Shown piece after piece: positions 52-44,544 of a stretch of DNA of 44,544 nt. The stretch is taken from contig JBNGIO010006232.1 of NCBI GenBank assembly GCA_049999805.1, forward strand, positions 75,048-119,591, written 5' to 3'. Position numbers and translations under genes: made by a program. Each line of letters starts with the position of its first letter. The stretch's first letter is position 1. This stretch comes from Folioceros fuciformis (Eukaryota). Under the pieces are notes generated by a model. The model was given only the letters and a program-made list of their open reading frames with translations. It did no database searches and was not told the DNA's origin.

Positions 52-2055
52 ATGCCTTCGAATGTGCAGAGCCCGGTGCAGGTGCAGGCGCCGGTTGCAG
101 TGCCGGATGGAGTTCATGGAGGAGCGGACGGCGGGGGAGGGTTCAGGCCGCACTACAGCCGGGCCATCGGGAGGAGGCGGATCTTTGTACAGACGGACAC
201 GGGGAACGTGCTAGGGATCGAGCTGGACCGAGCTGACAAGGTGCAGTCGGTGAAGAAGAAGGTGCAGGCGGCGCTGTGCGTGCCCACGGATCAGAGCGCG
301 CTGGTGTCGGGGGATGTGGTGCTGGACAAGGATCTGAGCGAGGTGCGGCACAATGCGCCGCTGCTGCTCACGCGGGGCCTGCACAGGAGCTCGTCTACTC
401 CCTGCCTCTCGCCGTCGCTGGATCTGGGAAGGGCGCGGGAAGGGAGCCGTCCCTTCGAGATCTGCGCCGGTCTTAGCGCATGCAGCAAGATCAAGAGGCT
501 GCTGCGGGAGTCGGCTAAGGCCATCGAGAGCGGCGTGGAGCCGGTGCCCGCGGCCGGAGGCTTGGGAGGGGCCTACTACTTCCGGAACCGACGAGGGGAG
601 AGCATCGCGATCGTGAAGCCCACTGACGAAGAGCCTTTCGCTCCCAACAACCCTAAAGGATTTGTCGGCAAGACGCTAGGCCAGCCCGGGCTCAAGAGAT
701 CCATCCGCGTCGGAGAGACTGGGGTGCGGGAGGTGGCTGCTTATTTGCTGGATCATGATCACTTCGCCAACGTTCCGGCCACGGCGTTGGTAAAGGCAAC
801 GCATCGGATTTTCAACGTGAATAGCGAGAACGGGGTGAACGAGAGTCCCAGTAGGAAGAAGGTGGCGGTGGCCAAGATCGGATCCTTTCAGCAGTTTGTG
901 CAGCATGATTTTGATGCCAGTGACCACGGGAGTTCGCGGTTCCCTGTGTCGGCGGTGCACCGGATTGGGATTCTCGATGTCAGGATTTTCAACACTGATC
1001 GCCATTCTGGCAACATTCTGGTGAGGAGGGATATGGGGAACTGGGGCAGATCCGGGCTTCGGGTTGATGATGCAGTGGAGCTGATTCCGATTGATCATGG
1101 CATGTGTTTGCCTGAAAATTTGGAGGATCCGTATTTTGAGTGGCTACATTGGCCCCAGGCTTCGTTCCCCTTTTCTGAGGAGGAGTTGGAGTATATCAGC
1201 AAGCTGGATGCTAACAAGGATGCGGAGATGCTGCGGAGAGAGTTGCCCATGCTGCGGGAGGCCTGTTTGAGGATGCTGGTTCTGTGCACCACCTTCTTGC
1301 AGATGGCTGCTGCGGCAGGGCTGTGTTTGGCGGATATCGGAGGGATGATGAGCAGGGAGTTATGCGGGGTGGACGAGGAGGCTAGTGAGTTGGAGACTAT
1401 ATGCACTTTAGCCAAGATCGAAGTTGACGTGTACTTAAAGGCTTCAGAACAGTCTGAAGGGGATGGGGACTGCCCATCTACTCCGGACGCTGAGTCTGTC
1501 ACGGACCAGACGCAGTTTGATATGGAGGAGGAGGACGACGTCCCAATAGAGGGGCAGGTGTTCCGTTCTCCAGGGCTTCACATTCCTCCTGTGTGCTTCT
1601 CACCACTGTCCCCGTCTCCTGTGGGGTCTGGTCGGATGGGATTCAACACCTTATTGATGCTGCAGGAGATGCACCCCTTGGAAGGTGACGAGCTGGCAGG
1701 TGGCATGAGGTATGAGTTTGCAGGTCCCGCTTCCTGCACCAGCAGTGCCATGGCTGTCATGGCGAGATGCAAGACTTCTCGCAGTGCCAGCCTCAACAAC
1801 AACCCCCGCAAGCACCACAACTTCGAGCTGAAGAGGGCCATTGGCTTGAGGGGCGTGTCCTCATCCGAAGTCGCTGAGAAGATCAACATGACTCCGGGAT
1901 TATGTGCTGCTCCACTTGTCATCTCGGAGCTATCCGACCGGGAGTGGTCCCTCTTCATGGACTACTTCCATGTCCTCCTGCTGGATGCCTTCGACAGGAG
2001 AAAGGGTGACAATGTGGGCCGTATGCAGAGGCTGGGTACTTCTTGTCAGTTCTGA
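52..2055 (+). CDS. Type II phosphatidylinositol 4-kinase gamma (ubiquitin-like domain + PI3/4-kinase domain), PI4Kgamma5/6/7-like
   Basis: Single 667-aa ORF. N-terminal ubiquitin-like segment (RRIFVQTDTGNVLGIELDR); kinase motifs GGLGGAYYF, KPTDEEPFAPNNPKG, REVAAYLLD, ILDVRIFNTDRHSGNIL, IPIDHG; family C-terminus QRLGTSCQF. Confidence 0.95.
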   Translation: MPSNVQSPVQVQAPVAVPDGVHGGADGGGGFRPHYSRAIGRRRIFVQTDTGNVLGIELDRADKVQSVKKKVQAALCVPTDQSALVSGDVVLDKDLSEVRHNAPLLLTRGLHRSSSTPCLSPSLDLGRAREGSRPFEICAGLSACSKIKRLLRESAKAIESGVEPVPAAGGLGGAYYFRNRRGESIAIVKPTDEEPFAPNNPKGFVGKTLGQPGLKRSIRVGETGVREVAAYLLDHDHFANVPATALVKATHRIFNVNSENGVNESPSRKKVAVAKIGSFQQFVQHDFDASDHGSSRFPVSAVHRIGILDVRIFNTDRHSGNILVRRDMGNWGRSGLRVDDAVELIPIDHGMCLPENLEDPYFEWLHWPQASFPFSEEELEYISKLDANKDAEMLRRELPMLREACLRMLVLCTTFLQMAAAAGLCLADIGGMMSRELCGVDEEASELETICTLAKIEVDVYLKASEQSEGDGDCPSTPDAESVTDQTQFDMEEEDDVPIEGQVFRSPGLHIPPVCFSPLSPSPVGSGRMGFNTLLMLQEMHPLEGDELAGGMRYEFAGPASCTSSAMAVMARCKTSRSASLNNNPRKHHNFELKRAIGLRGVSSSEVAEKINMTPGLCAAPLVISELSDREWSLFMDYFHVLLLDAFDRRKGDNVGRMQRLGTSCQF

Positions 2056-2475
2056 GGTGCTGTAGATTTTTTTTGCCTTGCCCTTCTCGTTTTGGACATC
2101 TGGTGAAAGCCAAAAAAATGTGGGCTTTTGTGGACGTTTCTTGTACATTTCTGAAATCTAGCTTCCTCTTTCTCTCGCATCTTCCTTGGACTGGCCTGGC
2201 CCCTTACAGCAGTGTCGTTTCTTCTGCCTCGGATCGCATACCATCCTGCCCCGTCGAGAGTGTGGGTCACACGAGACCTGCTGGCTTGCTTTCTGCGCTG
2301 TGTGAAAAGTATAAAAATTATGTTCGCAGAAGTGGCACGATTCTTGCCTTCAAAATTGCATCGTGTTGTCGCATCCCCCTTCGGATAGGCACAAGTAATA
2401 CCAGCAACTTTGGCCAAGTGATTTTTTCCCCTCTCCGTCACGTAAACTGACACACGCGACTCCAACCTGTTGGCG

Positions 2476-4437
2476 ATGGCTGCCGTCGAGCTGCAGCAGG
2501 CTGTGTCCGTGCTGCCCAAGGCTGCTGTCATCGCATCTTCTTGCAAGGGCTGTTCACAGAGCTTGCTGCTGCTGCGGCGGCAGCGCGTGCCGCGCAGCCG
2601 GGCCTGCACCCGGGCTGCCATCTCCCACGATGAGGACAAGAGGATGCAGGTGAGCCGGCGGCAGCTGCTGCTGGCGGGGTCCCAGCTGGCCCTCGCATTC
2701 GGAGCTCTGCAGCTGCAGACTGCGGCGGGGGCGGGGGCGGAGAGGGCGGAAACCAGCAAGGTCTTCTCGGAGTGGGAGCAGGTAACGCTGCCTGTGGACC
2801 CCGAGGTGGAGCTATTGGACGTGGCGTTCGTGCAAGGGGACTGGGACCATGGTAAGCATATGCCTGAGCTCTTGCTTGCTTGCTTGGCTCGCTGCCCGCT
2901 GATTTTAGCAAAGGAGTGCATTATGAATTTTGGGTTCGTCTTATGTCTGAGACCCTCTGCGATGTTTGTTGACCTCAACCATTCGAGGCTTCCTTGTTGG
3001 GACAAAACAGACTCTGCTGGAGACCACGGACGGGGGCAGGTCTTGGATTCGGTGCTCTCTTCCGGATGGGCTCGATGAAACCTCCGCCCAACATGCCTTC
3101 ACCAAAATCAGCTTCTCTGACCGTCAAGGCTGGATCATCGGAAGCCCTGCTATTGTGCTGCACACGACCGATGGTGGCAGTAGCTGGAGACGCGTGCCTC
3201 TCAGCCTCAAGCGCTCCAGAACTCCTGTGAGCCTCTAACGCAAGCGCTGTATGCAGAAGAAAGCCTGTCCTTTCTGGTATCTGGGCTTTGGATCCAAGGA
3301 ATTTCCTGGCTTCTTCTCACCTTGGGTCCACGTGGCAGCTGACCATCAAGGCCTTTGGACAAGACCGTGCGGAAATTGTGACAGATGAAGGGGCGGTCTA
3401 TGTTACGTCTGATGGTGGCAGCAGCTGGAAGTCCATAGCTTTGCAGGGCTCGTCGGGCAATGCCAAGTTGCCCAGCAACGTTGAGCTCTCCAAAGCCGAG
3501 AGATCATTTTATGGGGAATACGTTGCAGTCAGTTCTGAAGGCAACTCCTTCTTGATATGGACTCCAGAAGTGGTGAAAGCCCAACCTTGTTCCTCACAAG
3601 GCTTGAAGCATGACCTCTCTCTTGTTCGGCTTGGGTCTGATGCTTCCGCTGTGATGTGGCACGACTGACCAGGCGAGGTGGCAAACACACGGAGACTGGC
3701 GCTCATCCGGCATTTACAACGTGGGCTGGCGGACAGACGGTAGTCTTTGGCTTGTGAACCAGGATGGTGGTCTTTATCTGACCAACGGTCCTGAGGTACA
3801 CGGGTTTCGATTCAGCTAGATGTAGAAGTAGTGGCGAGCATTACAGTAGGTCTGACCCATTCGCTTGTTGTGGTCAGGAGCTTGATTCCTTCCGGGAGTC
3901 CAGCTTTTCAATCAGCGGACTCGGGATTAGGGACATTGGTTTCCGAACTCAGGTCGGTCAGGTTCCTCTCCGTTTGCCGAACCCAACACCCCGTCGTGCC
4001 CAGCATCACTAATCGTCTCAAGTCTGTTTTGATCTGTGCAGTACGAGGCATGGGCTGTTGGTTATGGCGGTCTCCTATTGAGAACGTTGGATGGTGGAAA
4101 CACCTGGATACGAGATCTCCTCCAGGAGAACTTCTCAGCAAACCTATCCGGCCTTAGGTCTGTCTCGTGCAGGCACACTCTTCACCAGATGAACTCTTCT
4201 TGTTTGCCCGCACCATGCCATAACTTCTTCCATTCTTCCGTCTCCTGCAGGTTTATTGATGGAAGGGGCTTCCTCATGGGCGAAGGTGGGTTGTTGTTTC
4301 GTCATTTGATCTACAAGAGGAGGTTTCAGTACATGGACTTCCAGTCCCTCAGAGCCATGATCAGGGAGAGCGTTGAGCGCAAAGGGTCAGAATACGATTA
4401 TTACGATTACGAATACGGTTATGAGTACAACTTCTAG
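2476..4437 (+). CDS. HCF136/Ycf48-like thylakoid-lumen beta-propeller protein, divergent paralog; 7 exons (2476-2851, 2988-3226, 3339-3572, 3673-3795, 3878-3952, 4042-4157, 4251-4437)
   Basis: Transit peptide plus Tat motif SRRQLL and a hydrophobic signal. HCF136-type motifs SEWEQVTLPVDPEVELLDVAFV, GFLVGTKQTLLETTDGGRSW, GWIIGSPAIVLHTTDGGSSW, VTDEGAVYVTSDGGSSW, GWRTDGSLWL, EAWAVGYGGLLLRTLDGGNTW. All introns GT-AG and in phase. Confidence 0.88.
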
Positions 4438-4769
4438 GCGGGGAAGTGAAGGACATAGGTCGGCTCAGACGAATGTGAGAGTGCCTATGTATTTGTGAAC
4501 CATACTCCGAGTCGTCCTCGGAAGATAAATACACAAGCCTTGCCGCTCGCACGCGTCGTTGCGTCGTCTGTGTTTCCTGTCTCTTCCTGCTCGCGTGTCT
4601 CGTCGTGTGCGCACTCTCCAGGCTAAGCGGAAGAAGGAAAGCGGTAGTTTGCCATCTTCGGGGCATGTCTCGCAAATCAAGACGACGCTCTTGCCGGCAA
4701 TGCCTTCCGGTTTGGCGGTTGAACTAATCAGTTTGTGGTTGTGAACGGACTAGGACGACCGCACAAGCC

Positions 4770-5331
4770 ATGGCAACGTTGAAGAACCTCAAGACCAAGA
4801 CTGGCATTGGCCGTCGGATATTGAAGGAGTTCCACTCTTATGAGAAGGAGGTGGAGCGGGAGACGGCGAAGATGGACGCTATGCGGGAAGCCAATGCCGA
4901 TGCTCACGACATCAAACAGCAGGTATGGTGCCTTGGCTTGCAAGCGTCATGGCCGTGATCTGCTACATCCGAGCCTGTCCGGTTGCCTGAAGTTCAGAAC
5001 GGGGAAGTAGCAGTTATGATGGCAGAAAGTCTTCTCATTTTTTTTTCTCCAGGAGAACGTATTATCGGAGTCGAAGATGATGATTCCAGACGTCAAGAAA
5101 AGGCTGGCAACCGCTTTGAACAACATTGAATCTGCGATTGTAAGTCAGCAAACTGATTGGGACCAGACCTTGCTAGTGCCGCGCAGAATGACAATCGCCG
5201 CTGAAAATGCTTGCTCGTTGCGTGATCTGCAGACTGAAGCTCTAAAAGATGAAGCCAGCGCGGAAACGGAAGAGCTCAAGGCAGCTCAGGAGTTAGTTTC
5301 GGAAGCCAAACCACTGCTTGCAGCCGCTTAG
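4770..5331 (+). CDS. TFCA: Tubulin-folding cofactor A; 3 exons (4770-4922, 5053-5139, 5233-5331)
   Basis: MATLKNLKTKTGIGRRILKEFHSYEKEVERETAK...DIKQQ|ENVLSESKMMIPD matches plant TFC-A/KIESEL. Canonical splice sites. Confidence 0.93.
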
Positions 5332-6363
5332 CTCCTTTCTGCCTCTGTTTCTCTCCTGGTGAACTGGGAACCTTGTCTGAGGAGCAAGCCCTCATGTTTT
5401 GCTGTTTAGCTTTGGACTCTGGCCATGGCGGCCCGCAGGCACCGGTGAGAGTGTGACTTCAGCTTCGCAGGCCTTGGCATGCGTTTTAGGGCAACGCTGA
5501 CTACATACAGTGCTGCAATTCCTGGCCGTCCGTGAAACCACAGTTACCCCGCGCCTGGTCCGTGCGAGGAATATTGCCACTTGTTTCGAGGAGCAACGGT
5601 TGATGTACAGTACCCTGAATCGGGGCGCCTTTACCAGACGGAAGCTGGCGTGCTTCTGTTGCTGGGTTTTTCAGTCTGGAGAGTGCTTCTCGGTCAGTCG
5701 ATAGTCATTATTAGATGTGACTTGAGTCTTCCTAGCTGGGTGTGGAAGGGTGCCGCTCGACACAGGGTGGAAGCATTTCAACTTCGGACGGACACAATCA
5801 CAGGTTGCGTTTGTGCTCGTCTTCTCAGCGGTCTCCCACAGTGGTCAAGTTGTTGGACACCTGGAAAGCATTGATGAGCTCGAAGGACTGCCTCTCTCGC
5901 TGCTGGTGGTAGTAATTTCGGTCTCTGTATTTCAGGAGGAACATCGCGTCAGAGTCTGACGTGAGGTCACCAGATGACCTTTTGTCACCGTGATCATTCG
6001 GTTCATCGAGGACCCAGTTCGTCGTCTACGCTACGGGCGCTGCAAGGTGAATGTTTGTTGTTCAGCAGAGGGGATACATTCATTGTGGCTCCGCGGGAGG
6101 GTGACTTTTTCTGTGGGCAAACTTCTGTGGCCTTGGATGCGATGGGTAGAGAATTGGAAACCTGAGTTTGCAGACTCAAGCCGGGAATCTTATTGGACCA
6201 GCATGCGCAGTGCAGAGAGAGTTGCAAACACTTGTCACCTTCATGTTAGTGGGTGGGAAGTTCTCCAGCTTTGTCTGGCACCCAACTCGCTGCAAAGAAG
6301 GTTTCGTTTTCGAGGAGGAAGTTTGAGTGGTGAAGCTCGTGGGCTTGAGCAGAGTTCAGAAGA

Positions 6364-8811
6364 ATGTCACTCCTTGCGTATGGTCAGGGGTTACTGGCAG
6401 GTGACTTTGAGGAAGGGGCCGGGATCACAGTTCCATGGGGATCCACCCAACCCTGGTTTGTTTGGGGGGAGGATTTTTCCTCTGAGAGCTCTTGTAGCGG
6501 GGATGAAGAGTTTGGGGCGGACCTATTCTTCAACGCTGTGGCAGCTGGAGCTCCGGAAGACCTTCAACAGGATGAACGAAGCAGTAGCAGGGCAGTGAGG
6601 ACGGAGTTGCACTGGGACTCTCCTCCCCAGTCCCCTGGTGCAGTCTCTGTTCACCTGCCATATGCAGTTCTGCAGATTGTGGCAACAGCATCCAAGGCAG
6701 ATGTCGTCGGAGTAGGAGTCATGCAGAGTAGCGAGCCTCTTCTGGAACATCTGTTGCATGTTCCTCGAGGGCTTGAGGTTCCCGATGTTTTTGAAATTTC
6801 GACCAACAGCTTCTTAGCGAGCAGCACTGGAACCCTTATGTTTGTTACTGATGAGTTGGACGTGCCAGCGCAGTTTGAGATGGGCCTTGGAGGGAGGCCC
6901 CAGGCAGTCCTTGCCAGTCGGTTCTATCTGGATGGGTTCTTGGGAATCTTCTATGCTTTGTGGCTGGATGCCCAGAAAATTCCACCGACTGTCGAAGCTA
7001 TTTTCCGTGATTCGCTGGTGTCTCTACCGAACTTGTTGTCAAATAGGATAAATGCAAGAAGGTACGAGAATTTGGGTAGGAGATTTGATGCGATCCTTAA
7101 GATGATGCCACAGGCTGTGGTTTTTGTGGACGACGAGACTGTCCAGGTGCTGGTGAACCCAGCTGCTGCCGACCTGCTGGGACTTCAGTCCCATGGTGAA
7201 GTTCAGCCTCTAGAGGTTGCAGAAGCCATGAAAAAGCTGGCTGAGAACAGTGGCACTCGTACTGATCCTCAAAGGATCATAAACGCAATTTCTGGCAAGA
7301 ACGATGGGCTGCACATCAAGGAGGAGTGGACGCTGACAAATCCTAGAAGAGTGCTGCTGGTGGGCTCGTATCCTGTGAGCAGTCATTCTGCTCATGGTCG
7401 CCAGTGGTATTTTGAGGATGTCACAGCCGAGCGTGATGCACGCGAAGCTATATTGTCTGCGAACAAAGCCAAGTCCCAGTTCCTCGCTATGATGAGTCAC
7501 GAGCTTCGGACACCTATGACTGGGGTGTTGGGGATGCTGGACCTGCTCAGTCTAACCAAGTTGGACTCCCACCAGCGGGAGCTTGTCAAGATCATGCAGG
7601 ACTCCGCTGATGGTTTGATGCAAGTCCTGAATAACATTCTGGATTTTTGCAAGATAGAAGCTGGCCGACTCTGCCTGGAGGAAATCGACTTTTCTCATGG
7701 TGAACTGTTGGAGCAGGTTATGGCTCTGCAAAAGGAGAAACTTGGTGATCATACGGTCGAGTTGAGGTTGAAGGGACCAGCAACTTCTCGGAATATGGTA
7801 CGAGGGGATCCTGTCCGTCTCCGACAGATTCTCATGAACTTGGTGAACAATGCTGTCAAATTTACGCCGAAGGGGATCGTAAGTATCTCCTGGAACTTGA
7901 GTGATCTTCTCACCCCCACAGCTGCATTTGCATTTGGTTCAAAGTTGGCAGCAAAAGGTGGCGCAGCTATGCGAACGAGTTTCCGCAGGTCCGGCAGTAT
8001 GTGTCGGACAGAATTAGCATCTAACCCACAGGACCTTGGGGCAGCTGCATCACGGGATAAGAAATACCACTGGCTGGAGGTGAAGGTTGCAGATACTGGA
8101 GTGGGTATGCCAGCGGAGCAGTTGCAGACATTGTTTGCCGGGAGTCCTGCAGCCAGTCTGCGTCGGGATTCTGCAGGCCCAGGACTTGGGCTGCAAATAT
8201 GCAACGGCTTACTTACGCTGATGGGGGGTGCAATCAGGGTGGAGAGTGAACTACACCGTGGTACAACAGTCACTTTTATCGTTCCCCTGCTTCCAGGGGA
8301 GGAGCTAGATAAGTTAGCCGCCATCCCAGCCACCCCTGCACCGAAACCCACACCGAAGCCTCCTTTGAGAGCTTCCGCCGGTACTGAACCATCCGACGGT
8401 AGCTGCACTTCAATCAAAGTCCTGGTTGCCGAGGACAATAGAGTGAACCAAGTTCTGATTAGGAGAATTCTGTGCCACTACGGGCATCAGGTTGAACTTG
8501 TCGGCAATGGGAAGCTGGCTGTGGAAGCTGTGCAGAAGAAGTCCTATGACTTAGTGCTCATGGATCTGCAAATGCCAGTTCTGGACGGCTTGAGTGCCAC
8601 GAGGGCCATAAGGGCTCTGCAACCTCCCACATCCCTCATTCCTATATATGCCCTCTCGGCCGATGCTCTTGCCCCGGAGAGCGGCCCTATGGAGGAGACA
8701 GGCCTCAGTGGCTACCTCAGCAAGCCCATTGAATGGGACAAGATGGCTGGGGTGGTTGATAAAGTGTTGGCACAAAAGGCTGCCGCTGTCGTCCACGACT
8801 CTGCTTCTTAA
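6364..8811 (+). CDS. Soluble hybrid histidine kinase (putative GAF-like + PAS + HisKA + HATPase + receiver), intronless CDS
   Basis: H-box FLAMMSHELRTPMTG, N-box LRQILMNLVNNAVKFT, G1 VADTGVGM, G2 PGLGLQIC. Receiver motifs VLVAEDN, DLVLMDLQMP, YLSKP. PAS-like segment FDAILKMMPQAVVFVDD...NPAAADLLG...WYFEDVT. No clear transmembrane helix. Start codon uncertain. Confidence 0.92.
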   Translation: MSLLAYGQGLLAGDFEEGAGITVPWGSTQPWFVWGEDFSSESSCSGDEEFGADLFFNAVAAGAPEDLQQDERSSSRAVRTELHWDSPPQSPGAVSVHLPYAVLQIVATASKADVVGVGVMQSSEPLLEHLLHVPRGLEVPDVFEISTNSFLASSTGTLMFVTDELDVPAQFEMGLGGRPQAVLASRFYLDGFLGIFYALWLDAQKIPPTVEAIFRDSLVSLPNLLSNRINARRYENLGRRFDAILKMMPQAVVFVDDETVQVLVNPAAADLLGLQSHGEVQPLEVAEAMKKLAENSGTRTDPQRIINAISGKNDGLHIKEEWTLTNPRRVLLVGSYPVSSHSAHGRQWYFEDVTAERDAREAILSANKAKSQFLAMMSHELRTPMTGVLGMLDLLSLTKLDSHQRELVKIMQDSADGLMQVLNNILDFCKIEAGRLCLEEIDFSHGELLEQVMALQKEKLGDHTVELRLKGPATSRNMVRGDPVRLRQILMNLVNNAVKFTPKGIVSISWNLSDLLTPTAAFAFGSKLAAKGGAAMRTSFRRSGSMCRTELASNPQDLGAAASRDKKYHWLEVKVADTGVGMPAEQLQTLFAGSPAASLRRDSAGPGLGLQICNGLLTLMGGAIRVESELHRGTTVTFIVPLLPGEELDKLAAIPATPAPKPTPKPPLRASAGTEPSDGSCTSIKVLVAEDNRVNQVLIRRILCHYGHQVELVGNGKLAVEAVQKKSYDLVLMDLQMPVLDGLSATRAIRALQPPTSLIPIYALSADALAPESGPMEETGLSGYLSKPIEWDKMAGVVDKVLAQKAAAVVHDSAS

Positions 8812-9596
8812 ACCCCGATGTTCACATGTACTCTGGAGGCATTGAAGGGTCCTTCCCCTTTCACAAGAAGCCAGCCAAGGAAGCAGGGTGAGATGGTTCC
8901 TTATAGTCTTACTTGTTGTGTAACAAAGCCTGCCTTTGTGTTGTCACTTCTGAGAGCCTCTGTTGTGCAGAAGCGTTTAGAGTCTAGAGGCGTCCTAGGC
9001 TTAATCCAGGAGGACAGGGAAGCTGAAATCGTACCCTTCGAGGCTTCTTTTGAGAATTTAATATTTGGAGAAGAATATTGTCTCCGATGTCAGTGTTCAG
9101 GTTTGTGTGTATCTGCTCACTCTGCATACAGAATGCCTCTGAGTTTGTCTGGAAATCTAGCCAGCAATTTCTATAAAGAATCGCATGCCGGGATGCAGTC
9201 GGAGCTTCTTTCACGACCAACTTTGCACGGTGCTTCTCGAGTTACCGGGTTCAGCAAAGCACTGTGATGTACATGTAACTGCAGTTATCGTTTCTTTCCA
9301 AAGTGAGGAAGCTTCTCGTGCGACATCGCCCCACGTGCACCCATGGTGAGTTGGCAGACGGACAGAGTCCCTGGATACCATGGATGATCGGACGACTAGG
9401 CATATGCCTGATGGACCATCGCACGGCTAAGAGCTCCAACCTGTCGCAGGTGCCACGCCCTGGATATGGTTGCCAATGTGTGCCACAATTTGTGCGGGGG
9501 AGAGATCGAGGGATGCAACTAGTTGATTGCTGTTGGTGGTCCTCTGGTTTGCTCACCGTCAAGAAGATCTAGAGGTTGATCTCGTGCTTGTTGCTG

Positions 9597-11813
9597 ATGT
9601 TGAATCGCCTGGCGGGAGCCGTGTTCGGAGCACTAGCGGTGGTCTCAACTGCCTTCAGTATGGTGCAGGACAGTGATATTGAAGGCACCATAGCCTTCAG
9701 CATCGTGGGCCGAATTCAGTACGCATTCGACGTCTACGTTACTCCTCATCCTCTGTCGGGGTCCGGAATCTGGGAAATTCGGCTCACAGATGGCGTGTCA
9801 GTGAATTACAATGCTCAGTTGCGGGAGGGGATTAACGTTCCCGCTCTCGGCTGGCGGGGACCCTTGGCCGATGTGGTGTCAGGATGGCCGACAGTGGATG
9901 TGCTGCTGTTCATCTCGGAGAGGTTGGGCAACGTTGAGTGCTTTGCCCGCCTCTCTCAAGGGCATGCCATTGAGCCGGTGGAGCAGAAGCTGCAGGACCT
10001 GAAGATCGATGAAGTGGTGGAGCACGGTAAAGACGCTGGTGAAAGACGAGAGGTGATCCTGCCACTCAGCTCTCTCATAGGATCGAAGGAAGGCGCCAGC
10101 TCCACCGTGGGCCAAGAGAGGATCAGCCTGGCGGACCGCCCTCTCTTGGCCAACAACACAGTCTATTTTGTCTCCACAAGAGAGCCTGCGGAGAAATTGC
10201 TGCAGTCATGGACGGCGATTTTCTCCGTCAGCCTGGAGACTGGATTCACTCAGCGGCTCACCCCGCAGGGAGTGAGCGACTACAGCCCCGCCATCTCGCC
10301 TTCCGGAGAATGGATCATGGTGGCCTCCAACCAGGGTAAGGGGTACCAGGGCCTGGAGACCAGCGTGATGGACTTGGATCTCTACATCTTCAAGGCCAGT
10401 GACGGATCCCGGCGCCGGATAGCTGTCGCAAACGGAGGCTGGCCAACTTGGAAGGACGAATCCACCGTCTTCTGCCACCGACTCGCAGACGACGGCTGGT
10501 GGAGCATCTTCAAGATCACTCTTCCTCCAGATCTGGCAACTTGGGAAGGCGATCTGAAGCTTCAAGCTGAGAGAGTCACTCCTCCCGGAGTCCATGCCTT
10601 CACTCCTGCTGCTTTCTCCGGGAACAACTGGCTGGCCGTGGCCACGCGCCGGCCCGGCGAATCCAACTTCCGGCACATCGAGGTCTTCGACCTGGAAACC
10701 TCCTCCTTCTCGAAGGTAACAGAGGCGATCCAGCCCGATGCACACCACTACAGTCCCTTCGTCTCTGCTTCCTTCATCGGCTACCACAAGTGCAGGGGCC
10801 CAGGTTCGGATTTGAACGAAGTCCCGCGGCTGGAGCGGATGGAAACCAGTCTCCCGAGTCTGGATTTGCTGCGCGCCGACGGCGACTTCCCCGCCATCTC
10901 CCCCGACGGATCCCTCATCGCCTACATTCCGGAGCTCTCTGCTTCCGGTGGCCTGTTCATAATGCACCGGAACGGAACGGGACGGAAGGAGGTCTTCTCC
11001 GGGCTGGTGTTCGGCACCAGTTGGGATCGGCAGCGAGCAGGCCGGGTGTATACAACGTCGGGGGCTATCTTTGCTTCAGCTCCGGCTGCGGTGCAGGTGA
11101 TCGCTGTCTCCTTCGACGAGAAGGCGTTCAGGGCGGGTGGCGACCATGAGGCGGCGACCACCTCGTACACCGTGCTGACGTCGGAGGGGACTGGAAACAA
11201 CGCGTTTCCATCCGCGTCGCCCGACGGTCAGGAGGTGGTGTTCCGGTCGGGCAGGTCAGGGTACAAGAACCTATACATCATGGACTCGGAGGGGGAGGCT
11301 CACGGGCTGCGGCGTCTGACAGACGGCGCCTGGACGGATACCATGCCCAGCTGGTCGCCATCCGGAGAGTGGATCGCCTTCTCGTCCGATCGGCACGCGC
11401 CGGGGTCGGGTTCGTTCGCCATCTGGCTGGTGCGACCGGACGGGAGCGGGCTGCATCGGCTGTTGCCGGAGGTGGACGGTCGGATGAACCATCCCTGCTT
11501 CAGCCCGGATTCGAGGCACTTAGTTTTCACAGCCAATCTGGCGGGAAACTCCGCTGAGCCTATTTCCATGCCGCACCAGTTCCAGCCCTACGGCGAGATA
11601 TTTGTGATTGCCGTGGATGGAACGGGACTGAAGCGTCTCACCCACAACGCGTATGAAGACGGCACTCCGACCTGGGGGCGCCCTGCACCTGGTGGTACAG
11701 GGCAGCTGTCGTCCGAGGGCTCGCCCGTGGATTGCTCCTTTGATGATGTGCATTGGATGGGGAGCCCTTCTGTTGGTTTGCGCATTCCCAGTGCGTTCAT
11801 TGCATGCCGTTAG
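9597..11813 (+). CDS. TolB-like / PD40 (WD40-like beta-propeller) repeat protein with N-terminal signal peptide
   Basis: Repeated PD40 motifs (SPAISPSGEWI, FPAISPDGSLIAY, FPSASPDGQEVVFRSGRSGYKNLYIMD, MPSWSPSGEWIAFSSDR, HPCFSPDSRHLVF) and the plant family motif EPISMPHQFQPYGEIF. First ATG at 9597 gives a hydrophobic leader. Confidence 0.9.
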   Translation: MLNRLAGAVFGALAVVSTAFSMVQDSDIEGTIAFSIVGRIQYAFDVYVTPHPLSGSGIWEIRLTDGVSVNYNAQLREGINVPALGWRGPLADVVSGWPTVDVLLFISERLGNVECFARLSQGHAIEPVEQKLQDLKIDEVVEHGKDAGERREVILPLSSLIGSKEGASSTVGQERISLADRPLLANNTVYFVSTREPAEKLLQSWTAIFSVSLETGFTQRLTPQGVSDYSPAISPSGEWIMVASNQGKGYQGLETSVMDLDLYIFKASDGSRRRIAVANGGWPTWKDESTVFCHRLADDGWWSIFKITLPPDLATWEGDLKLQAERVTPPGVHAFTPAAFSGNNWLAVATRRPGESNFRHIEVFDLETSSFSKVTEAIQPDAHHYSPFVSASFIGYHKCRGPGSDLNEVPRLERMETSLPSLDLLRADGDFPAISPDGSLIAYIPELSASGGLFIMHRNGTGRKEVFSGLVFGTSWDRQRAGRVYTTSGAIFASAPAAVQVIAVSFDEKAFRAGGDHEAATTSYTVLTSEGTGNNAFPSASPDGQEVVFRSGRSGYKNLYIMDSEGEAHGLRRLTDGAWTDTMPSWSPSGEWIAFSSDRHAPGSGSFAIWLVRPDGSGLHRLLPEVDGRMNHPCFSPDSRHLVFTANLAGNSAEPISMPHQFQPYGEIFVIAVDGTGLKRLTHNAYEDGTPTWGRPAPGGTGQLSSEGSPVDCSFDDVHWMGSPSVGLRIPSAFIACR

Positions 11814-20084: not shown

Positions 20085-23000
20085 ATGGCCACTGCATGGA
20101 AATCGGACCCTTCGTGGATCCAACGAATTGCGAATGGTGTGTGTACAGAAATTGCACCAGGAGATCCCGGCTCAGGGAGTCAGACCATGCCTCTGGCAAA
20201 CAAAGCCTTCAGGTGCAGCAGTGTAAGTAGACCAGCACATCCCTTTCTGAAGACGTGCATGGGTAGGGACGGAATTTGCCAGGAGCAGGAGCACTTGTGG
20301 CAACAATTTTTTCTGGACCCGACTCTGTGGTGGGACAACAGACGAGATAAGAAGAGCTCCCGTGCGCCTGACTTCCGGCGTAAGAAGACCGGCGAGGTGC
20401 TGTGGTTAAACAGCGTTTTTAAGCCAGCTTGGGTTGATGAGCAGCTCATGTCCATGGATATGCAGATGGGACGCTGTACATCGCCGTCAGAGTGCGGGTC
20501 ACCGGATAGGGCTGGAATTGGGAGGGGTGGAACAGCAGAAATGGATGTCGTTACGGCCCTAAACGTGAGCACTTTCTGTGAGCAGGGGAAGCTTTCTGAG
20601 GCCGTTGGAGCTCTGGAATCTCTGGTGCGGACGGACTCTGTGATTTCCGACTCTCTGTTTTGCACTGTGCTGAGACTGTGTACAGCTAAGAAGGATTTGG
20701 TTGTGGGACGACGCGTTCATGATCTGTGTGTCGAATTTGGATACGAGTCTAATACGTACTTGGGGAACCATGTCTTGCGCATGTATGCATGTGGAGGGAG
20801 GCTACAAGAGGCCATGCATGTGTTCACCAGGGTAGGGAATCCAGATGTTATCACTTGGGGTTCCATTATCTCTGCATATGCTAAACATGGGAAACCCAAC
20901 GAAGCCATACAACTGTACCATGAGATGCGTAAGTCAGGAGTGAAGCCGAATGGGCACGTCTTTGTAGCTGCTCTTCAAGCCTGTGCATTTGGCGCCGACT
21001 TGGAGTCTGGCAGAAAAGTGCACTCTGATGTTTTGCACAGTGGCATTCCTTCTAACCCGTTTGTTGGCAACTGCCTGGTGGACATGTATGCGAAATGCGG
21101 TGGAATGGGATATGCCCGGCAGGTTTTTGATAGCATGGCCGTAAAGGATGTGGTGACATGGAATGCTCTGATATCTGGGTATGCAAAATGTGGTGAACTG
21201 AAAGATGCACGCCAGGCCTTCGACAGCATGGCCATGAAGGATGTGGTGACGTGGAATGCTCTGATAGCTGGATACGTCGAGCAAGGGCTCGGACATGAGG
21301 CACTTGTTCTGTATGAACAAATGGAGCAGGATGGGCTTATTTTGGCTAATCATGTCACTTTTGCTTGCCTTCTGAATGCCTGTGCCAGCACGGGTGCCTT
21401 ACTGAAGGGCAAACAGCTGCACTCAAAGATTGTAGAAAGAAGACTGCAGGGCAATATACTGGTGGACAACTGCCTGGTAAACATGTATGCAAAGTGTGGT
21501 GAACTTGAAGTTGCACGCCAGTTTTTTGACAGCTTGGCCACAAAGGATGTGGTGACGTGGACGTCTTTAATTGCTGGGTATGCACATCAAGGACTGGGCC
21601 AAGAGGCGCTTGTTCTATATGGACGAATGGAGCAAGGAGGCCTCATTTTGGCTAACCGTGTCACTTTTGCTTGCCTACTGAAGGCCTGTGGAAGCATTGG
21701 TGCCTTGCAGAAAGGCAAGCAGCTTCACTCACAGATTTTGAAAAGCGGGCTACTGGATGACGTAGTGTTGCGCACCTGCCTGGTGGACATGTATGCAAAA
21801 TGTGGTGAACTAGAAGATGCACGCCAGGTCTTCGACAGCATGGCTACAAAGGATTTGGCGACATGGAATGCCCTGATATCTGGGTATGCCAAATGTGGTG
21901 AAATGCACAATGCACGCCAGGTTTTTGACAGCATGGCCACAAAGGATGTGGTGACATGGACGGCACTGATAGCTGGGTATGCCCAGCAAGGACCTGGCGA
22001 AGAGGCACTGATTGTGTATGAACGAATGGAGCAAGAAGGCGTGATTTTAGCTAACCACGTTACTTTCGCTTGCCTTCTCAATGCCTGTGCAAGTACTGGT
22101 GCCTTACAGAAGGGCAGACAGCTGCACTCTCAAATTGTCGAAAGAGGACTGCTGGATAACGTACTGCTGGGCAACTGCTTGGTGGACATGTATGCCAAAT
22201 GTGGTGAACTGGAAGACGCACGCCAGGTTTTCGAGAGCATGAACGTAAAGAACGTGGTGACATGGAATGCCCTGATATCTGGGTATGGTACTTGTGACGA
22301 AGGTCACCTGGCATTAGCTTGCTTTGAGGAGATGTTACTTGCAGGTACGCAGCCTAATGACGCCACCTTTACTTGCCTTTTGGTAGCATGCAGTCATGGG
22401 GGACTTGTCGAAGATGGTCGCAAGCATTTCGATTCCATGGCTAAACAGCACGGCATCAGACCTAGTATTGAGCACTACGTTTGCATGACTGATCTTCTTG
22501 GGCGTGCCGGCCACTTAGATGAGGCGGAGAAGATTCTATCATCATGTGAGGGCCAAAGCAATGTTGTGGGCTTGCGGTCTTTGTTAAATGCCTGCAAAAA
22601 CCACGGGGATGTCGAGAGGGCCAGGAGGTGTTTTGAAAGCATTGTTAGGCTGGACCCCCAGGATGCCCCCGGGTATGTGCTCATGGCCAACGTCTATGCA
22701 GATGCAGGTAGGTGGACCGACGTAGACAGGATTGAAACGCAGAGAAGGGCAGCAGGAGCTAACAAGAAACCTGCAATGGCGACCATTGAGGTAAACAAGC
22801 AGGTACATAGATTTCTGGTGGGAGAAAGGAGGGAGGATATTGCACTTCAGGCAGAGAGCACGAACGCACGTATGAAGCAGGAAGGAGGACACGTTCCTCA
22901 CACAAAGTTGGTGCTGAAGCCAGTGTGTGAGAAGGAAAAGGAAGATGCGCTCTGTGGGCATGCTGAGAAGCTAGCTCTGGCATTTGGTCTCTTGAACACT

Positions 23001-23168
23001 CCGAATGGAACACCTCTAGTAGTAACTAAGAATTTACGCATGTGCAGTGACTGCCACAGTTCCACTGTGATCATGTCGAGGGTGGAACAGAGAGACATTG
23101 TCGTAAGAGATGCTTACAGGGTGCATCGATTCGCAGCGGGTTGCTGCAGTTGTAATGGTCGACCGTGA
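20085..23168 (+). CDS. PLS-class PPR protein with E1/E2 and DYW:KP (GRP-type) domain, putative organellar U-to-C RNA editing factor, with N-terminal PDF motif
   Basis: About 20 P/L/S/SS motifs. KP box KPAMATIEV, zinc site HAEKLA...CSDCH, C-terminus CCSCNGRP*. Single 1027-aa ORF. Confidence 0.95.
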   Translation: MATAWKSDPSWIQRIANGVCTEIAPGDPGSGSQTMPLANKAFRCSSVSRPAHPFLKTCMGRDGICQEQEHLWQQFFLDPTLWWDNRRDKKSSRAPDFRRKKTGEVLWLNSVFKPAWVDEQLMSMDMQMGRCTSPSECGSPDRAGIGRGGTAEMDVVTALNVSTFCEQGKLSEAVGALESLVRTDSVISDSLFCTVLRLCTAKKDLVVGRRVHDLCVEFGYESNTYLGNHVLRMYACGGRLQEAMHVFTRVGNPDVITWGSIISAYAKHGKPNEAIQLYHEMRKSGVKPNGHVFVAALQACAFGADLESGRKVHSDVLHSGIPSNPFVGNCLVDMYAKCGGMGYARQVFDSMAVKDVVTWNALISGYAKCGELKDARQAFDSMAMKDVVTWNALIAGYVEQGLGHEALVLYEQMEQDGLILANHVTFACLLNACASTGALLKGKQLHSKIVERRLQGNILVDNCLVNMYAKCGELEVARQFFDSLATKDVVTWTSLIAGYAHQGLGQEALVLYGRMEQGGLILANRVTFACLLKACGSIGALQKGKQLHSQILKSGLLDDVVLRTCLVDMYAKCGELEDARQVFDSMATKDLATWNALISGYAKCGEMHNARQVFDSMATKDVVTWTALIAGYAQQGPGEEALIVYERMEQEGVILANHVTFACLLNACASTGALQKGRQLHSQIVERGLLDNVLLGNCLVDMYAKCGELEDARQVFESMNVKNVVTWNALISGYGTCDEGHLALACFEEMLLAGTQPNDATFTCLLVACSHGGLVEDGRKHFDSMAKQHGIRPSIEHYVCMTDLLGRAGHLDEAEKILSSCEGQSNVVGLRSLLNACKNHGDVERARRCFESIVRLDPQDAPGYVLMANVYADAGRWTDVDRIETQRRAAGANKKPAMATIEVNKQVHRFLVGERREDIALQAESTNARMKQEGGHVPHTKLVLKPVCEKEKEDALCGHAEKLALAFGLLNTPNGTPLVVTKNLRMCSDCHSSTVIMSRVEQRDIVVRDAYRVHRFAAGCCSCNGRP

Positions 23169-32149: not shown

Positions 32150-33574
32150 TCACCAGAACTTCAATTTGAGATGGAAGGCTTGGGCGAGGGTCATGCCTCC
32201 AGCGAGGAAGGCAAGGTAAGCAATGAGTGTAGAGAATGCCCAAATCGGGGTGACTGAGATGGTGTCCGTGCTCAAGTTCACCAATCCGGTGAGCACATTG
32301 GCTAGCAAAAACGTTGGTAGAAGGTTCTGATCAAAGGCATCCATCCAAATCATCCGTCTCAGAGGAAGAAGAGCTTCTGCCAGGGCGAAACTTCCGATCA
32401 CCTGGAAGTTCTGCCCCAAAATAAATAGAACGTAGGCCAGGTTGCATGTTCGCCGTGACACTCTCTCAACGAGCTGATCAGTCACAGCTGCCAGAATCCA
32501 GAACACGGCATCCAAACCACATACTTCCATAGCGGTGTACCAGCGGACAGACTCCTCCCTGAGCTTGTCATCATCGGTTACAGTTTTGAATCTCTTGAAC
32601 AGAAGCCCAGCTGACTGGTTTACCATGAATCCCAGCTGAACACTGATAAGGTAGAGGGCCCAGTATCCCAAAGTGCTGTACAGGCCTTCCTTGTTCAAGC
32701 TCACGATGCTGGATCCCCTCTCTGATGACAGCAGATACTCGTTGAGCCCGGAGGATAGCCATGCTTGATATGCTGCTAGGATGAGAAGGCCTACAACCCC
32801 ACTCACGGAGGCCGGGATCTGGATCACGGATGTGAGGAGAGTCACGGCGGCGAGCGTGAAAAAAAAGTTCCAGTGAAGCCCGTACTCTGAAATATGCTCC
32901 TGGTAGTCCACACCTTTGGTCAGAAACAGCCTGGCAAAGCCAAGGGCGAGAAGGGGGCTCACGCTCCTCAGCACAGCCCCATACATGGGCGGCAAACCTC
33001 TTGCTTGTCTGGAGACCAATGCGTTAGCCACCACAAAAGATCCCACCCCCACGTCCATCAACCCTGTGCCGTAGGTCTCTGTCTTGGCCAGCCTTCTAGG
33101 GTAGATTGTGAAGTCCACAGCGAGAATTGTGATGCATGTCACCAGCATCATGGCGCACCTGTACGATGAAAGGAAGGACCTGCGAGGAGGGCCCCCCACC
33201 TGTTGTTCATCTAAGGTGGCCCGACTTGTGCCCCGAAGAAGCAAAACGCAAGCCAGCAGCACGAAGACCAAGGTCGCAAGCACGACATTGACAGATTCTG
33301 CAAGGACAGTGAGGCTAGCTAGAATCGGCAGGATCACCACCGTCAGCTCGATTCCTAAAGACCTAACCACCTCACTCCACAGTCGTCGGCCCTTGACAGC
33401 CAAAGGGGGCCTGAACGGAGTGTAGCTGGCCACAATCTGTCCCAAAACCATAAACCCCGGAACCACCGCTGACAGAGCTGCAATCTCTGGCATGCTGGTG
33501 CCATCTAGATTGCTCACAAATTCCTCCTTTCTCAGTTTGTAGGAACTCGTAATGGACGCACTTCGGTGGGCCAT
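32150..33574 (-). CDS. PIGW: GPI inositol acyltransferase PIG-W/GWT1, intronless
   Basis: Motifs KLRKEEFVSNLDGTS, TILAVDFTIYPRRLAKTETYGTGLMDVGVGSFV, YQEHISEYGLHWNFFFTL, NKEGLYSTLGY, VSRRTCNLAY, FLLANVLTGLVN. Confidence 0.95.
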   Translation of the reverse strand: MAHRSASITSSYKLRKEEFVSNLDGTSMPEIAALSAVVPGFMVLGQIVASYTPFRPPLAVKGRRLWSEVVRSLGIELTVVILPILASLTVLAESVNVVLATLVFVLLACVLLLRGTSRATLDEQQVGGPPRRSFLSSYRCAMMLVTCITILAVDFTIYPRRLAKTETYGTGLMDVGVGSFVVANALVSRQARGLPPMYGAVLRSVSPLLALGFARLFLTKGVDYQEHISEYGLHWNFFFTLAAVTLLTSVIQIPASVSGVVGLLILAAYQAWLSSGLNEYLLSSERGSSIVSLNKEGLYSTLGYWALYLISVQLGFMVNQSAGLLFKRFKTVTDDDKLREESVRWYTAMEVCGLDAVFWILAAVTDQLVERVSRRTCNLAYVLFILGQNFQVIGSFALAEALLPLRRMIWMDAFDQNLLPTFLLANVLTGLVNLSTDTISVTPIWAFSTLIAYLAFLAGGMTLAQAFHLKLKFW

Positions 33575-33803
33575 CGTCCATGAAATCGCAGGGCATTCTA
33601 CACACCGTCACACGCTCACGACGCAATATCGACAAACCGCACAAAGTCTCGGCTTCTTCAGAAGCCAAGACGAATTAGTATAAATGAGAACCCTAGTGCG
33701 CACAATACATGCTGTTGAGCTACAACTCTCAGACACAGTGCACGCCTCCTTGACACCACACCAGGATAGCAGATTCGTGAGCAGTTTTCGCAGTGAGCAA
33801 TTG

Positions 33804-43890: not shown

Positions 43891-44544
43891 TGTAAGATAG
43901 CGTGAGCGAGAATTGGAATAATAATAATAATAATAATGCATAATGGCAATACAAAAATGTTTAAATACTTTCTACATGTCCTTTCACTAGACAACCCCTA
44001 ATTATATATAAACTATATATATNNNNNNNNNNGTCGATAAAGGCGATCAACCTCTCGATTCCTGTTTAAGGGATGCGTTGGTGATGCGCCGGGCCTACTG
44101 TTAAGTGCAGCAAATCGTTGCAGCCAAAGGGCAAGGTAGTCGTATTCGTGGAGGTCCAGCGCCGAGTCAAGATCAACTTGTAGTGGCGCTATACGTCTTG
44201 GTGGGTTGGTATCTTGTCGTCGACGTTGTCTAGGAAACCCACCACGATGAACCTCTATGCGAGCCACCCTGCCTCGGCATCTTCCAGGAATTGTGTTAGG
44301 AGACAGAGCATGGCTCTGAGACCATATGTAAGATGAGCGTGAGCAAGAATTGGAATAATAATAATAATAATCCATAATGGCAATACAAAAATGTTTAAAT
44401 ACTTTCTAGATGTCCTTTCACTAGACAACCCCTAATTATATATAAACTATATATATATCCCTAACCGTGGGTTAAGTTTAACCATTCTGCGCTAACATCA
44501 CAGGACTTCCTTTCTCGGGTGTACTGATCCCAGATCTTCAGCTC
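43891..44544 (-). mobile_element. LTR retrotransposon (minus strand): partial 3' LTR 43891-44022, assembly gap, internal remnant, PBS 44311-44324, 5' LTR from 44327 running off the window
   Basis: About 130-bp near-identical direct repeats, both starting TGTAAGA on + (ending ...TCTTACA on -). The minus strand has TGGTCTCAGAGCCA 2 nt after the LTR end, a 13/14 match to the tRNA-iMet PBS TGGTATCAGAGCCA. Confidence 0.8.
44023..44032. other. Assembly gap (10 N)
   Basis: Run of N. Confidence 1.

Follow-up and report, generated by a model that had tools for sequence, protein, structure and literature searches.

An HCF136-like gene at the locus

We analyzed a 44,544-nucleotide stretch of DNA from Folioceros fuciformis (contig JBNGIO010006232.1, positions 75,048 to 119,591; hereafter, the window), in which positions 2476–4437 of the + strand carry a seven-exon gene whose product resembles the photosystem II (PSII) assembly factor known as HCF136 in plants and algae and as Ycf48 in cyanobacteria. 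The product, which we call the HCF136-like protein, is apparently a transcribed, correctly spliced, and fast-evolved derivative of HCF136 and, as far as can be seen, is confined to the lineage of the source plant. Ycf48 is a seven-bladed Asp-box propeller that binds the module of D1 or its precursor (pD1) and the PSII reaction center complex (RCII), and it is needed for PSII accumulation; HCF136 and Ycf48 are among the most conserved PSII assembly factors.

The gene has a single, uninterrupted open frame of 449 codons, and all six of its introns have GT..AG borders. The span singled out in an earlier note on this DNA, made from the sequence alone (3339–3795), comprises exon 3 (3339–3572), intron 3 (3573–3672), and exon 4 (3673–3795). 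The spliced peptide quoted in that note was reproduced by reading across the 3572/3673 joint, which also occurs, with 0 other letters, in a contig from one of the sequencing runs described below (run X1). The note had further stated that the frame and splice sites are intact, and this agrees with the 449-codon frame, the GT..AG borders throughout, and the exon joints found in the run contigs.

When the exons were scanned singly against Pfam, the PSII_BNR family (PF14870, “Photosynthesis system II assembly factor YCF48”; gathering cut-off 27) was matched by exon 2 at 80.8 bits and by exon 3 at 56.4 bits, which bears out the family assignment made in the earlier note. Exons 4 and 6 gave weak PSII_BNR matches, and exons 1, 5, and 7 gave none in this single-exon scan. 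The solved structures nearest to exon 3 were red-algal HCF136 (PDB 5oj3, E-value 8.7e−14) and cyanobacterial Ycf48 (8am5, 5ojp, and 2xbg). Four perfect Asp-boxes occur at the places where canonical HCF136 has them, within a colinear alignment of approximately 310 residues, so that the propeller motifs are intact, as had been claimed, and the Asp-box beta-propeller scaffold is probably kept. Generic secreted BNR/Asp-box propellers (PF02012; Sortilin-Vps10, PF15902) gave weak matches based on the repeat motif alone, whereas full-length colinear similarity was confined to HCF136/Ycf48.

By inspection, a transit peptide-like N-terminus precedes a Ser-Arg-Arg motif, and a hydrophobic core then leads to an Ala-Gly-Ala end. 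The twin-Arg signal is close to those of Sphagnum, Ceratodon, and Calypogeia HCF136, in line with the twin-arginine translocation (Tat) signal reported in the earlier note. In other words, a putative presequence for targeting to the chloroplast and, via the Tat pathway, to the lumen is kept.

Replacement of the Arg patch

The Arg patch is said to have been first defined by Yu et al. in 2018. In Synechocystis Ycf48, it consists of Arg180, Arg196, Arg215, Arg219, Arg220, and Arg237 and docks on D1; Arg220 and Arg237 form salt bridges to two ligands of the Mn cluster, D1-Asp170 and D1-Glu189, and the backbone nitrogen of Gly238 is hydrogen-bonded to D1-Gly166 (PMC10403576). We fixed the Syn6803 numbering with HMMER alignments to chain 8am5_S, in which exon 3 residues 3–76 fell on residues 141–205 and exon 4 residues 2–40 fell on residues 209–247 without a gap.

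Five of the six Arg-patch residues of Syn6803 Ycf48 are replaced in the HCF136-like protein (R196E, R215D, R219S, R220G, and R237Q), including both salt-bridge arginines, and the position of Gly238 is occupied by Asp. Positions 196 and 215 are now acidic, i.e., charge-reversed. The sixth position, 180, lies within a remodeled loop; HMMER places Lys248 there, whereas MAFFT sets the Lys one column earlier, so that position 180 is at best a Lys. The earlier note had proposed that the Arg patch was lost through the changes SSR to SSE, HNR to HGD, and RR to SG, all of which were found at positions 196, 215, 219, and 220, and the canonical motifs it gave are those of plant HCF136 in the fetched sequences and alignment. 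It had nevertheless understated the loss, because the fifth arginine (237) and the adjoining glycine (238) are also gone.

To place these changes against the family, we used a canonical set of 122 sequences, consisting of 120 proteins from a profile search and two cyanobacterial-type proteins; its named rows are from a charophyte, mosses, a liverwort, lycophytes, ferns, and seed plants, and it also holds unnamed algal rows. In this set, the six counted columns 196, 215, 219, 220, 237, and 238 contained, in that order, Arg in 121 sequences and Lys in 1; Arg in all 122; Arg in 122; Arg in 122; Arg in 119, with one Asn and two gaps; and Gly in 120, with two gaps. Because these columns are the most invariant of the family, the change of the patch is far from what chance would give.

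Blade 3/4 loop, C-terminal tail, and protein-wide divergence

Eukaryotic HCF136 has a 19-residue insertion (PMC11449106; PMC10403576) between blades 3 and 4, in the loop near the C-terminal tail of D1, and it is this loop that is shortened in the HCF136-like protein. Counted on the alignment, the segment that runs from the Asp-box Lys to the conserved “RS” has 26 residues, compared with 36 in canonical plants and 17 in a cyanobacterium; the insertion that remains, of approximately nine residues, is 10 residues short of the eukaryotic length and unrelated in sequence. The description of the loop in the earlier note, as replaced by a shorter unrelated segment, is therefore accurate.

Two further features had not been noticed in that note. 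The first is a 42-residue C-terminal tail (residues 408–449), which opens with a basic segment, is probably helical in the middle, and becomes rich in Tyr (nine residues), Asp, and Glu toward its end. The tail is missing from all of the canonical sequences compared, which stop at a ...LRYLG/S motif in the last propeller strand; it had no Pfam match, and the best score of the last exon in the ESM Atlas was 0.88, below a meaningful level. In a related species (run X2, see below), a contig spanning 4249–4428, to within nine bases of the stop codon, showed 14 substitutions in the tail exon, with no indel listed. The second feature is divergence throughout the protein: among the 167 columns that are near-invariant in the canonical set (≥95% of the 122 sequences), 95 are kept and 72 are changed, and the changes are spread over every exon.

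Compared with plant and algal HCF136 (PF14870; red-algal structure PDB 5OJ3), the HCF136-like protein is thus alike in its domain family, in its approximately 50% identity to streptophyte HCF136, in its bipartite twin-Arg presequence, in the places of its four Asp-boxes, and in the site of its blade 3/4 insertion. It differs in five of the six patch residues, in the change of Gly238 to Asp, in an insertion of 9 rather than 19 residues, in its 42-residue tail, in the 72 changed columns, and in a long end branch in the phylogenetic tree (see below). With cyanobacterial Ycf48 (PDB 2XBG and 5OJ5, and the RCII complex 8AM5), it shares membership of the Asp-box propeller family, an identity of approximately 38–42%, and DGG Asp-boxes. 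Unlike Ycf48, it has no lipobox Cys, carries a transit peptide and a Tat signal, has extra loop residues and a tail, and lacks the Arg patch that, in 8AM5, binds D1-Asp170 and D1-Glu189 (PMC10403576).

Transcript evidence and sequence constraint

Contigs from four coded public sequencing runs (X1–X4), whose kinds were guessed and are not recorded as RNA, were aligned to positions 1800–5600 of the window. All seven aligned contigs of run X1 were ≥99% identical to the window, and one of them, a 1544-base contig covering 2489–4644 with 0 other letters, skips all six introns at the modeled boundaries. The source of run X2 is a relative with approximately 93% identity in DNA: both of its aligned contigs were 90–95% alike, with 122 differences over the stretch. 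The orthologous X2 contig skips the same six introns, five of them with joints at the modeled boundaries and the third with a shifted joint; the shift comes down to three differing bases (GCG AGG to GCA CGG), a synonymous change that leaves Ala-Arg as it is. Both introns of the neighboring TBCA-like gene are likewise skipped in X1 and X2. Run X3 yielded one partial contig, which covered the TBCA-like gene only, and no contig of run X4 aligned to positions 1800–5600. The intron-less contigs strongly suggest that the HCF136-like gene is transcribed and correctly spliced. The gene is real, and its transcription in two related species is very probable.

The differences between X2 and the window were distributed unevenly among the pieces of the gene: 31 of 428 bases in exon 1 with the 5′ untranslated region (UTR), 18 of 240 in exon 2, 13 of 235 in exon 3, 3 of 117 in exon 4, and 14 of 180 in exon 7. 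Exon 4, the bearer of the rebuilt patch, is therefore the least changed of the exons with listed X2 counts, two synonymous changes at its joint coming on top of these three, and the 3′ UTR gave no alignment at 85%. The sole indel listed in the coding part of X2 is a frame-keeping one of six bases in the signal peptide. For a codon count, 25 differences were entered (23 among the 40 listed of the 122, and two further ones), with at least 82 others lying outside the count. Among the 24 changed codons reconstructed in this way, 15 were in the presequence (5 synonymous and 10 nonsynonymous) and 9 in the mature part (6 synonymous and 3 nonsynonymous). Although it falls well short of a rigorous test, the latter ratio suggests that the mature protein is under purifying selection.

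These data bear directly on the possibility that the gene is a decaying duplicate, i.e., that it continues to be transcribed and spliced although selection on it has been relaxed, that it has no function of its own, and that it is turning into a pseudogene. The loss of the functional patch and loop, the loss of 72 of the 167 near-invariant columns in all exons, an end branch with a length of 3.5 (median 0.094), and the lack of any relative closer than canonical HCF136 (45–51% identity) among the best 150 of 1097 matches (see below) would all be expected of such a duplicate. However, the 449-codon frame is open, and even the approximately 7%-diverged X2 sequence has a single in-frame coding deletion of six bases. 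Furthermore, every splice site is used, all four Asp-boxes are perfect, exon 4 is less changed (3/117) than exon 3 (13/235) or exon 2 (18/240), and the visible mature part shows more synonymous than nonsynonymous changes (6 versus 3). We therefore consider decay unlikely.

Relatives and phylogenetic position

Over the 310-residue propeller, the HCF136-like protein was 49–50% identical to streptophyte HCF136, approximately 40% identical to the chlorophyte-like rows, and 38–42% identical to the cyanobacterial rows, whereas canonical land-plant HCF136 proteins are 70–80% identical among themselves. An exhaustive search of a representative library with exon 3 gave 1097 matches at E ≤0.001, the best 150 of which were listed and included many multi-repeat BNR proteins. 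The colinear full-range matches among these best 150 of 1097 were solely canonical HCF136/Ycf48 proteins (40–51% identity), and no protein with an intermediate loop and no relative closer than canonical HCF136 was found among them. In a profile search with a mixed alignment, the best 120 of 1016 matches were all canonical, although proteins like the one in the window would rank lower than these. Word-index protein searches gave no match for exon 3 and six unrelated bacterial BNR proteins for exon 2, but they also missed canonical HCF136, and neither exon retrieved its own product. A metagenome scan with exon 3 gave 221 pattern matches, none of which was confirmed.

In a maximum-likelihood tree of the mature domain, constructed from 27 rows without any named hornwort HCF136, the HCF136-like protein fell inside the land-plant clade, beside moss and lycophyte sequences, with an ultrafast bootstrap (UFboot) value of 94 and an SH-like approximate likelihood ratio test (SH-aLRT) value of 90. 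Its end branch measured 3.5 changes per column, approximately 37 times the median of 0.094. A tree of 42 rows that included the presequences, taken from an unfinished run, gave a similar general placement. Approximately unbiased (AU) tests did not reject a clade of all canonical eukaryotic rows without the HCF136-like protein (p = 0.15) or a clade of all non-chlorophyte rows without it (p = 0.147).

An alternative, which concerns the origin of the protein more than its function, is that it is no recent duplicate particular to one lineage but a member of an ancient paralogous family of its own, which diverged from HCF136 ahead of the diversification of the green lineage. The unrejected positions outside the canonical eukaryotic and the non-chlorophyte rows would allow this. 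Moreover, the Asp-boxes are of the DGG type, as in the cyanobacterial rows, while boxes 2 to 4 of the aligned canonical plant row lack DGG, and the length of the loop lies between the cyanobacterial and eukaryotic forms. In contrast, the best tree nests the protein among moss and lycophyte HCF136, and its identity is highest to streptophytes (49–50%, against 38–42% for the chlorophyte-like and cyanobacterial sequences). Furthermore, none of the best 150 of 1097 matches was a similar protein with an intermediate loop, although multi-repeat BNR proteins took up much of that list. Taken together, these observations make such an early split improbable.

Proposed role of the HCF136-like protein

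On balance, we favor the reading that the gene encodes a re-surfaced HCF136 derivative, restricted to its lineage, which still arrives in the lumen but has exchanged docking on the Mn-site face of D1 for a different binding role. The protein would enter the thylakoid lumen with its propeller folded and would no longer cap the Mn-binding site of D1 as HCF136 does; instead, its re-charged face and tail would bind another lumenal partner or surface, and the essential job would be left to a canonical HCF136 whose gene lies at another locus. The simplest guess is that the role would still be related to PSII, for example in another assembly or repair step or in the modulation of HCF136.

A canonical HCF136 copy is very likely present elsewhere in the genome, because the patch arginines are near-invariant and their D1 partners are Mn ligands. 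We thus infer that the HCF136-like gene is a paralog beside the canonical one. Neofunctionalization can reasonably be supposed, and it would fit the preservation of the frame in two species. A wider version of this proposal, which we put forward tentatively and hold to be possible rather than probable, is that hornworts, or a subgroup of them, have a second lumen-targeted, HCF136-derived propeller with a neutral or acidic face and an acidic, Tyr-rich tail. Such a propeller might be a new lumen factor with a new ligand (e.g., a basic lumenal surface, or Mn/Ca), and it might serve a step of PSII biogenesis or repair other than the capping of the Mn site, or act as an antagonist of HCF136.

If the HCF136-like protein were instead the sole HCF136 of the organism, it would still have to assemble PSII, via a remodeled interface formed, for example, by Arg285, Arg293, Lys248, and the tail. 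The apparently retained targeting signal and scaffold and the apparent expression of the gene are compatible with this, and no second copy was seen within the 44.5 kb searched. However, hardly any of the 122 canonical sequences, which range from cyanobacteria to seed plants, departs from Arg at the patch positions, and the partners of these arginines on D1 are ligands of the Mn cluster (PMC10403576) and therefore not free to co-vary. In addition, two of the patch positions are charge-reversed, and an identity of approximately 50% is far from the 70–80% found among canonical land-plant sequences. We therefore regard a sole copy as highly improbable.

Several points weigh against the favored reading of a re-surfaced derivative with another binding role. 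The land-plant placement in the tree is not starred, and an outside position is not rejected (AU p = 0.15). No second PSII_BNR-like stretch was found within the 44.5-kb window, which was the extent searched. The change of 72 of the 167 columns across the whole protein would also be expected from relaxed selection, and the synonymous/nonsynonymous count covers nine codons of the mature part, with at least 82 differences outside it. The types of runs X1 and X2 are guessed, not recorded as RNA. Close to the former patch, the new residues Arg285 and Arg293, together with Lys248, might make up for part of its loss. Finally, the intact fold is deduced from motifs and the alignment rather than from a structure model of the spliced protein.

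The earlier note had also suggested a tie to pyrenoid or thylakoid architecture, for which we found no support: the sole pyrenoid-related text encountered states that canonical HCF136 localizes near pyrenoids in green algae (bioRxiv 10.64898/2026.07.16.738900), which has no bearing on the HCF136-like protein. Searches of the main texts in an open-access collection yielded no account of any plant copy of HCF136 without the Arg patch. With its targeting and scaffold apparently kept and exactly the docking face rebuilt, the HCF136-like protein amounts to a natural experiment on the other uses of this propeller in the lumen. If a canonical copy coexists, a single lineage of land plants would have derived a new lumenal protein from an essential assembly factor; if the HCF136-like gene is the sole copy, it would challenge the present model of Ycf48 docking on D1.

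Features of the gene and neighboring genes

The features of the HCF136-like gene are collected in Table 1.

Table 1. Exons and protein features of the HCF136-like gene (positions in the window; residues of the 449-residue product)
Feature	Residues	Window positions	Strand	Evidence and remarks
Exon 1		2476–2851	+	Start codon, Ser/Ala/Arg-rich transit peptide-like N-terminus, twin-Arg signal, beginning of mature protein; joint 2851/2988 in X1 and X2 contigs
Twin-Arg signal, hydrophobic core, AGA end	60–88	2653–2739	+	Likeness to bryophyte HCF136 signals
Exon 2		2988–3226	+	Blades, Asp-boxes at residues 138–145 and 185–192; PSII_BNR E-value 1.4e−22, 80.8 bits; joints in X1 and X2
Exon 3		3339–3572	+	Third Asp-box at residues 228–235; PSII_BNR E-value 3.7e−15; alignments to PDB 5oj3, 8am5, 5ojp
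Shortened blade 3/4 loop (in exon 3)	240–261	3441–3506	+	K248 at or adjoining the Arg180 position
Glu272 replacing Arg196 (exon 3)	272	3537–3539	+	Alignment to Ycf48 chains and column counts
Exon 4		3673–3795	+	Carries the rebuilt patch; residues 2–40 on 8am5_S 209–247, ungapped
Asp291 replacing Arg215 (exon 4)	291	3694–3696	+	
Ser295 and Gly296 replacing Arg219 and Arg220 (exon 4)	295–296	3706–3711	+	
Gln313 and Asp314 replacing Arg237 and Gly238 (exon 4)	313–314	3760–3765	+	
Exon 5 (25 codons)		3878–3952	+	Aligns to canonical HCF136; joints in X1 and X2
Exon 6		4042–4157	+	Fourth Asp-box at residues 364–371; weak PSII_BNR match, E-value 4.4e−4; joints in X1 and X2
Exon 7		4251–4437	+	Last propeller strand, 42-residue C-terminal tail, stop codon; no Pfam match
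C-terminal tail (in exon 7)	408–449	4309–4434	+	

Downstream of the HCF136-like gene, the X1 contigs join 4642 to 4753 (GT..AG) and 4661 to 4753 in the region of the TBCA-like gene (4634–4782 and 4753–5331, + strand). This gene thus seems to possess a non-coding first exon, overlapping the end of the 3′ UTR of the HCF136-like gene, which an X1 contig follows to 4644. One X2 contig links the two genes, and this may represent either read-through transcription or an assembly chimera.

Four other neighbors are ordinary land-plant nuclear genes, largely intron-poor and none of them related to photosynthesis: a gene for a PI3/PI4-kinase-domain protein (1–2055, +), one for a hybrid histidine kinase with a receiver domain (6349–8811, +), one for a PD40/DPPIV-N propeller protein (9573–11813, +), and a GWT1 homolog (32150–33607, −). 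Among the open reading frames at 42.5–43.8 kb, the one tested had no Pfam match, and XXXX in one reverse-strand frame at approximately 44013–44405 shows that the window contains a short stretch of N close to its end. An intron-less pentatricopeptide repeat (PPR) gene at 20085–23165 (+) encodes E-motif and DYW-deaminase domains, with a product that ends in GRP rather than DYW, a marker that makes a hornwort origin of the window plausible, as the earlier note had assumed. According to PMC9478123, DYW:KP domains are limited to hornworts, lycophytes, and ferns; the hornwort variants DRH and GRP are named after their last three residues, and GRP, as one of these DYW:KP variants, is linked to U-to-C RNA editing.

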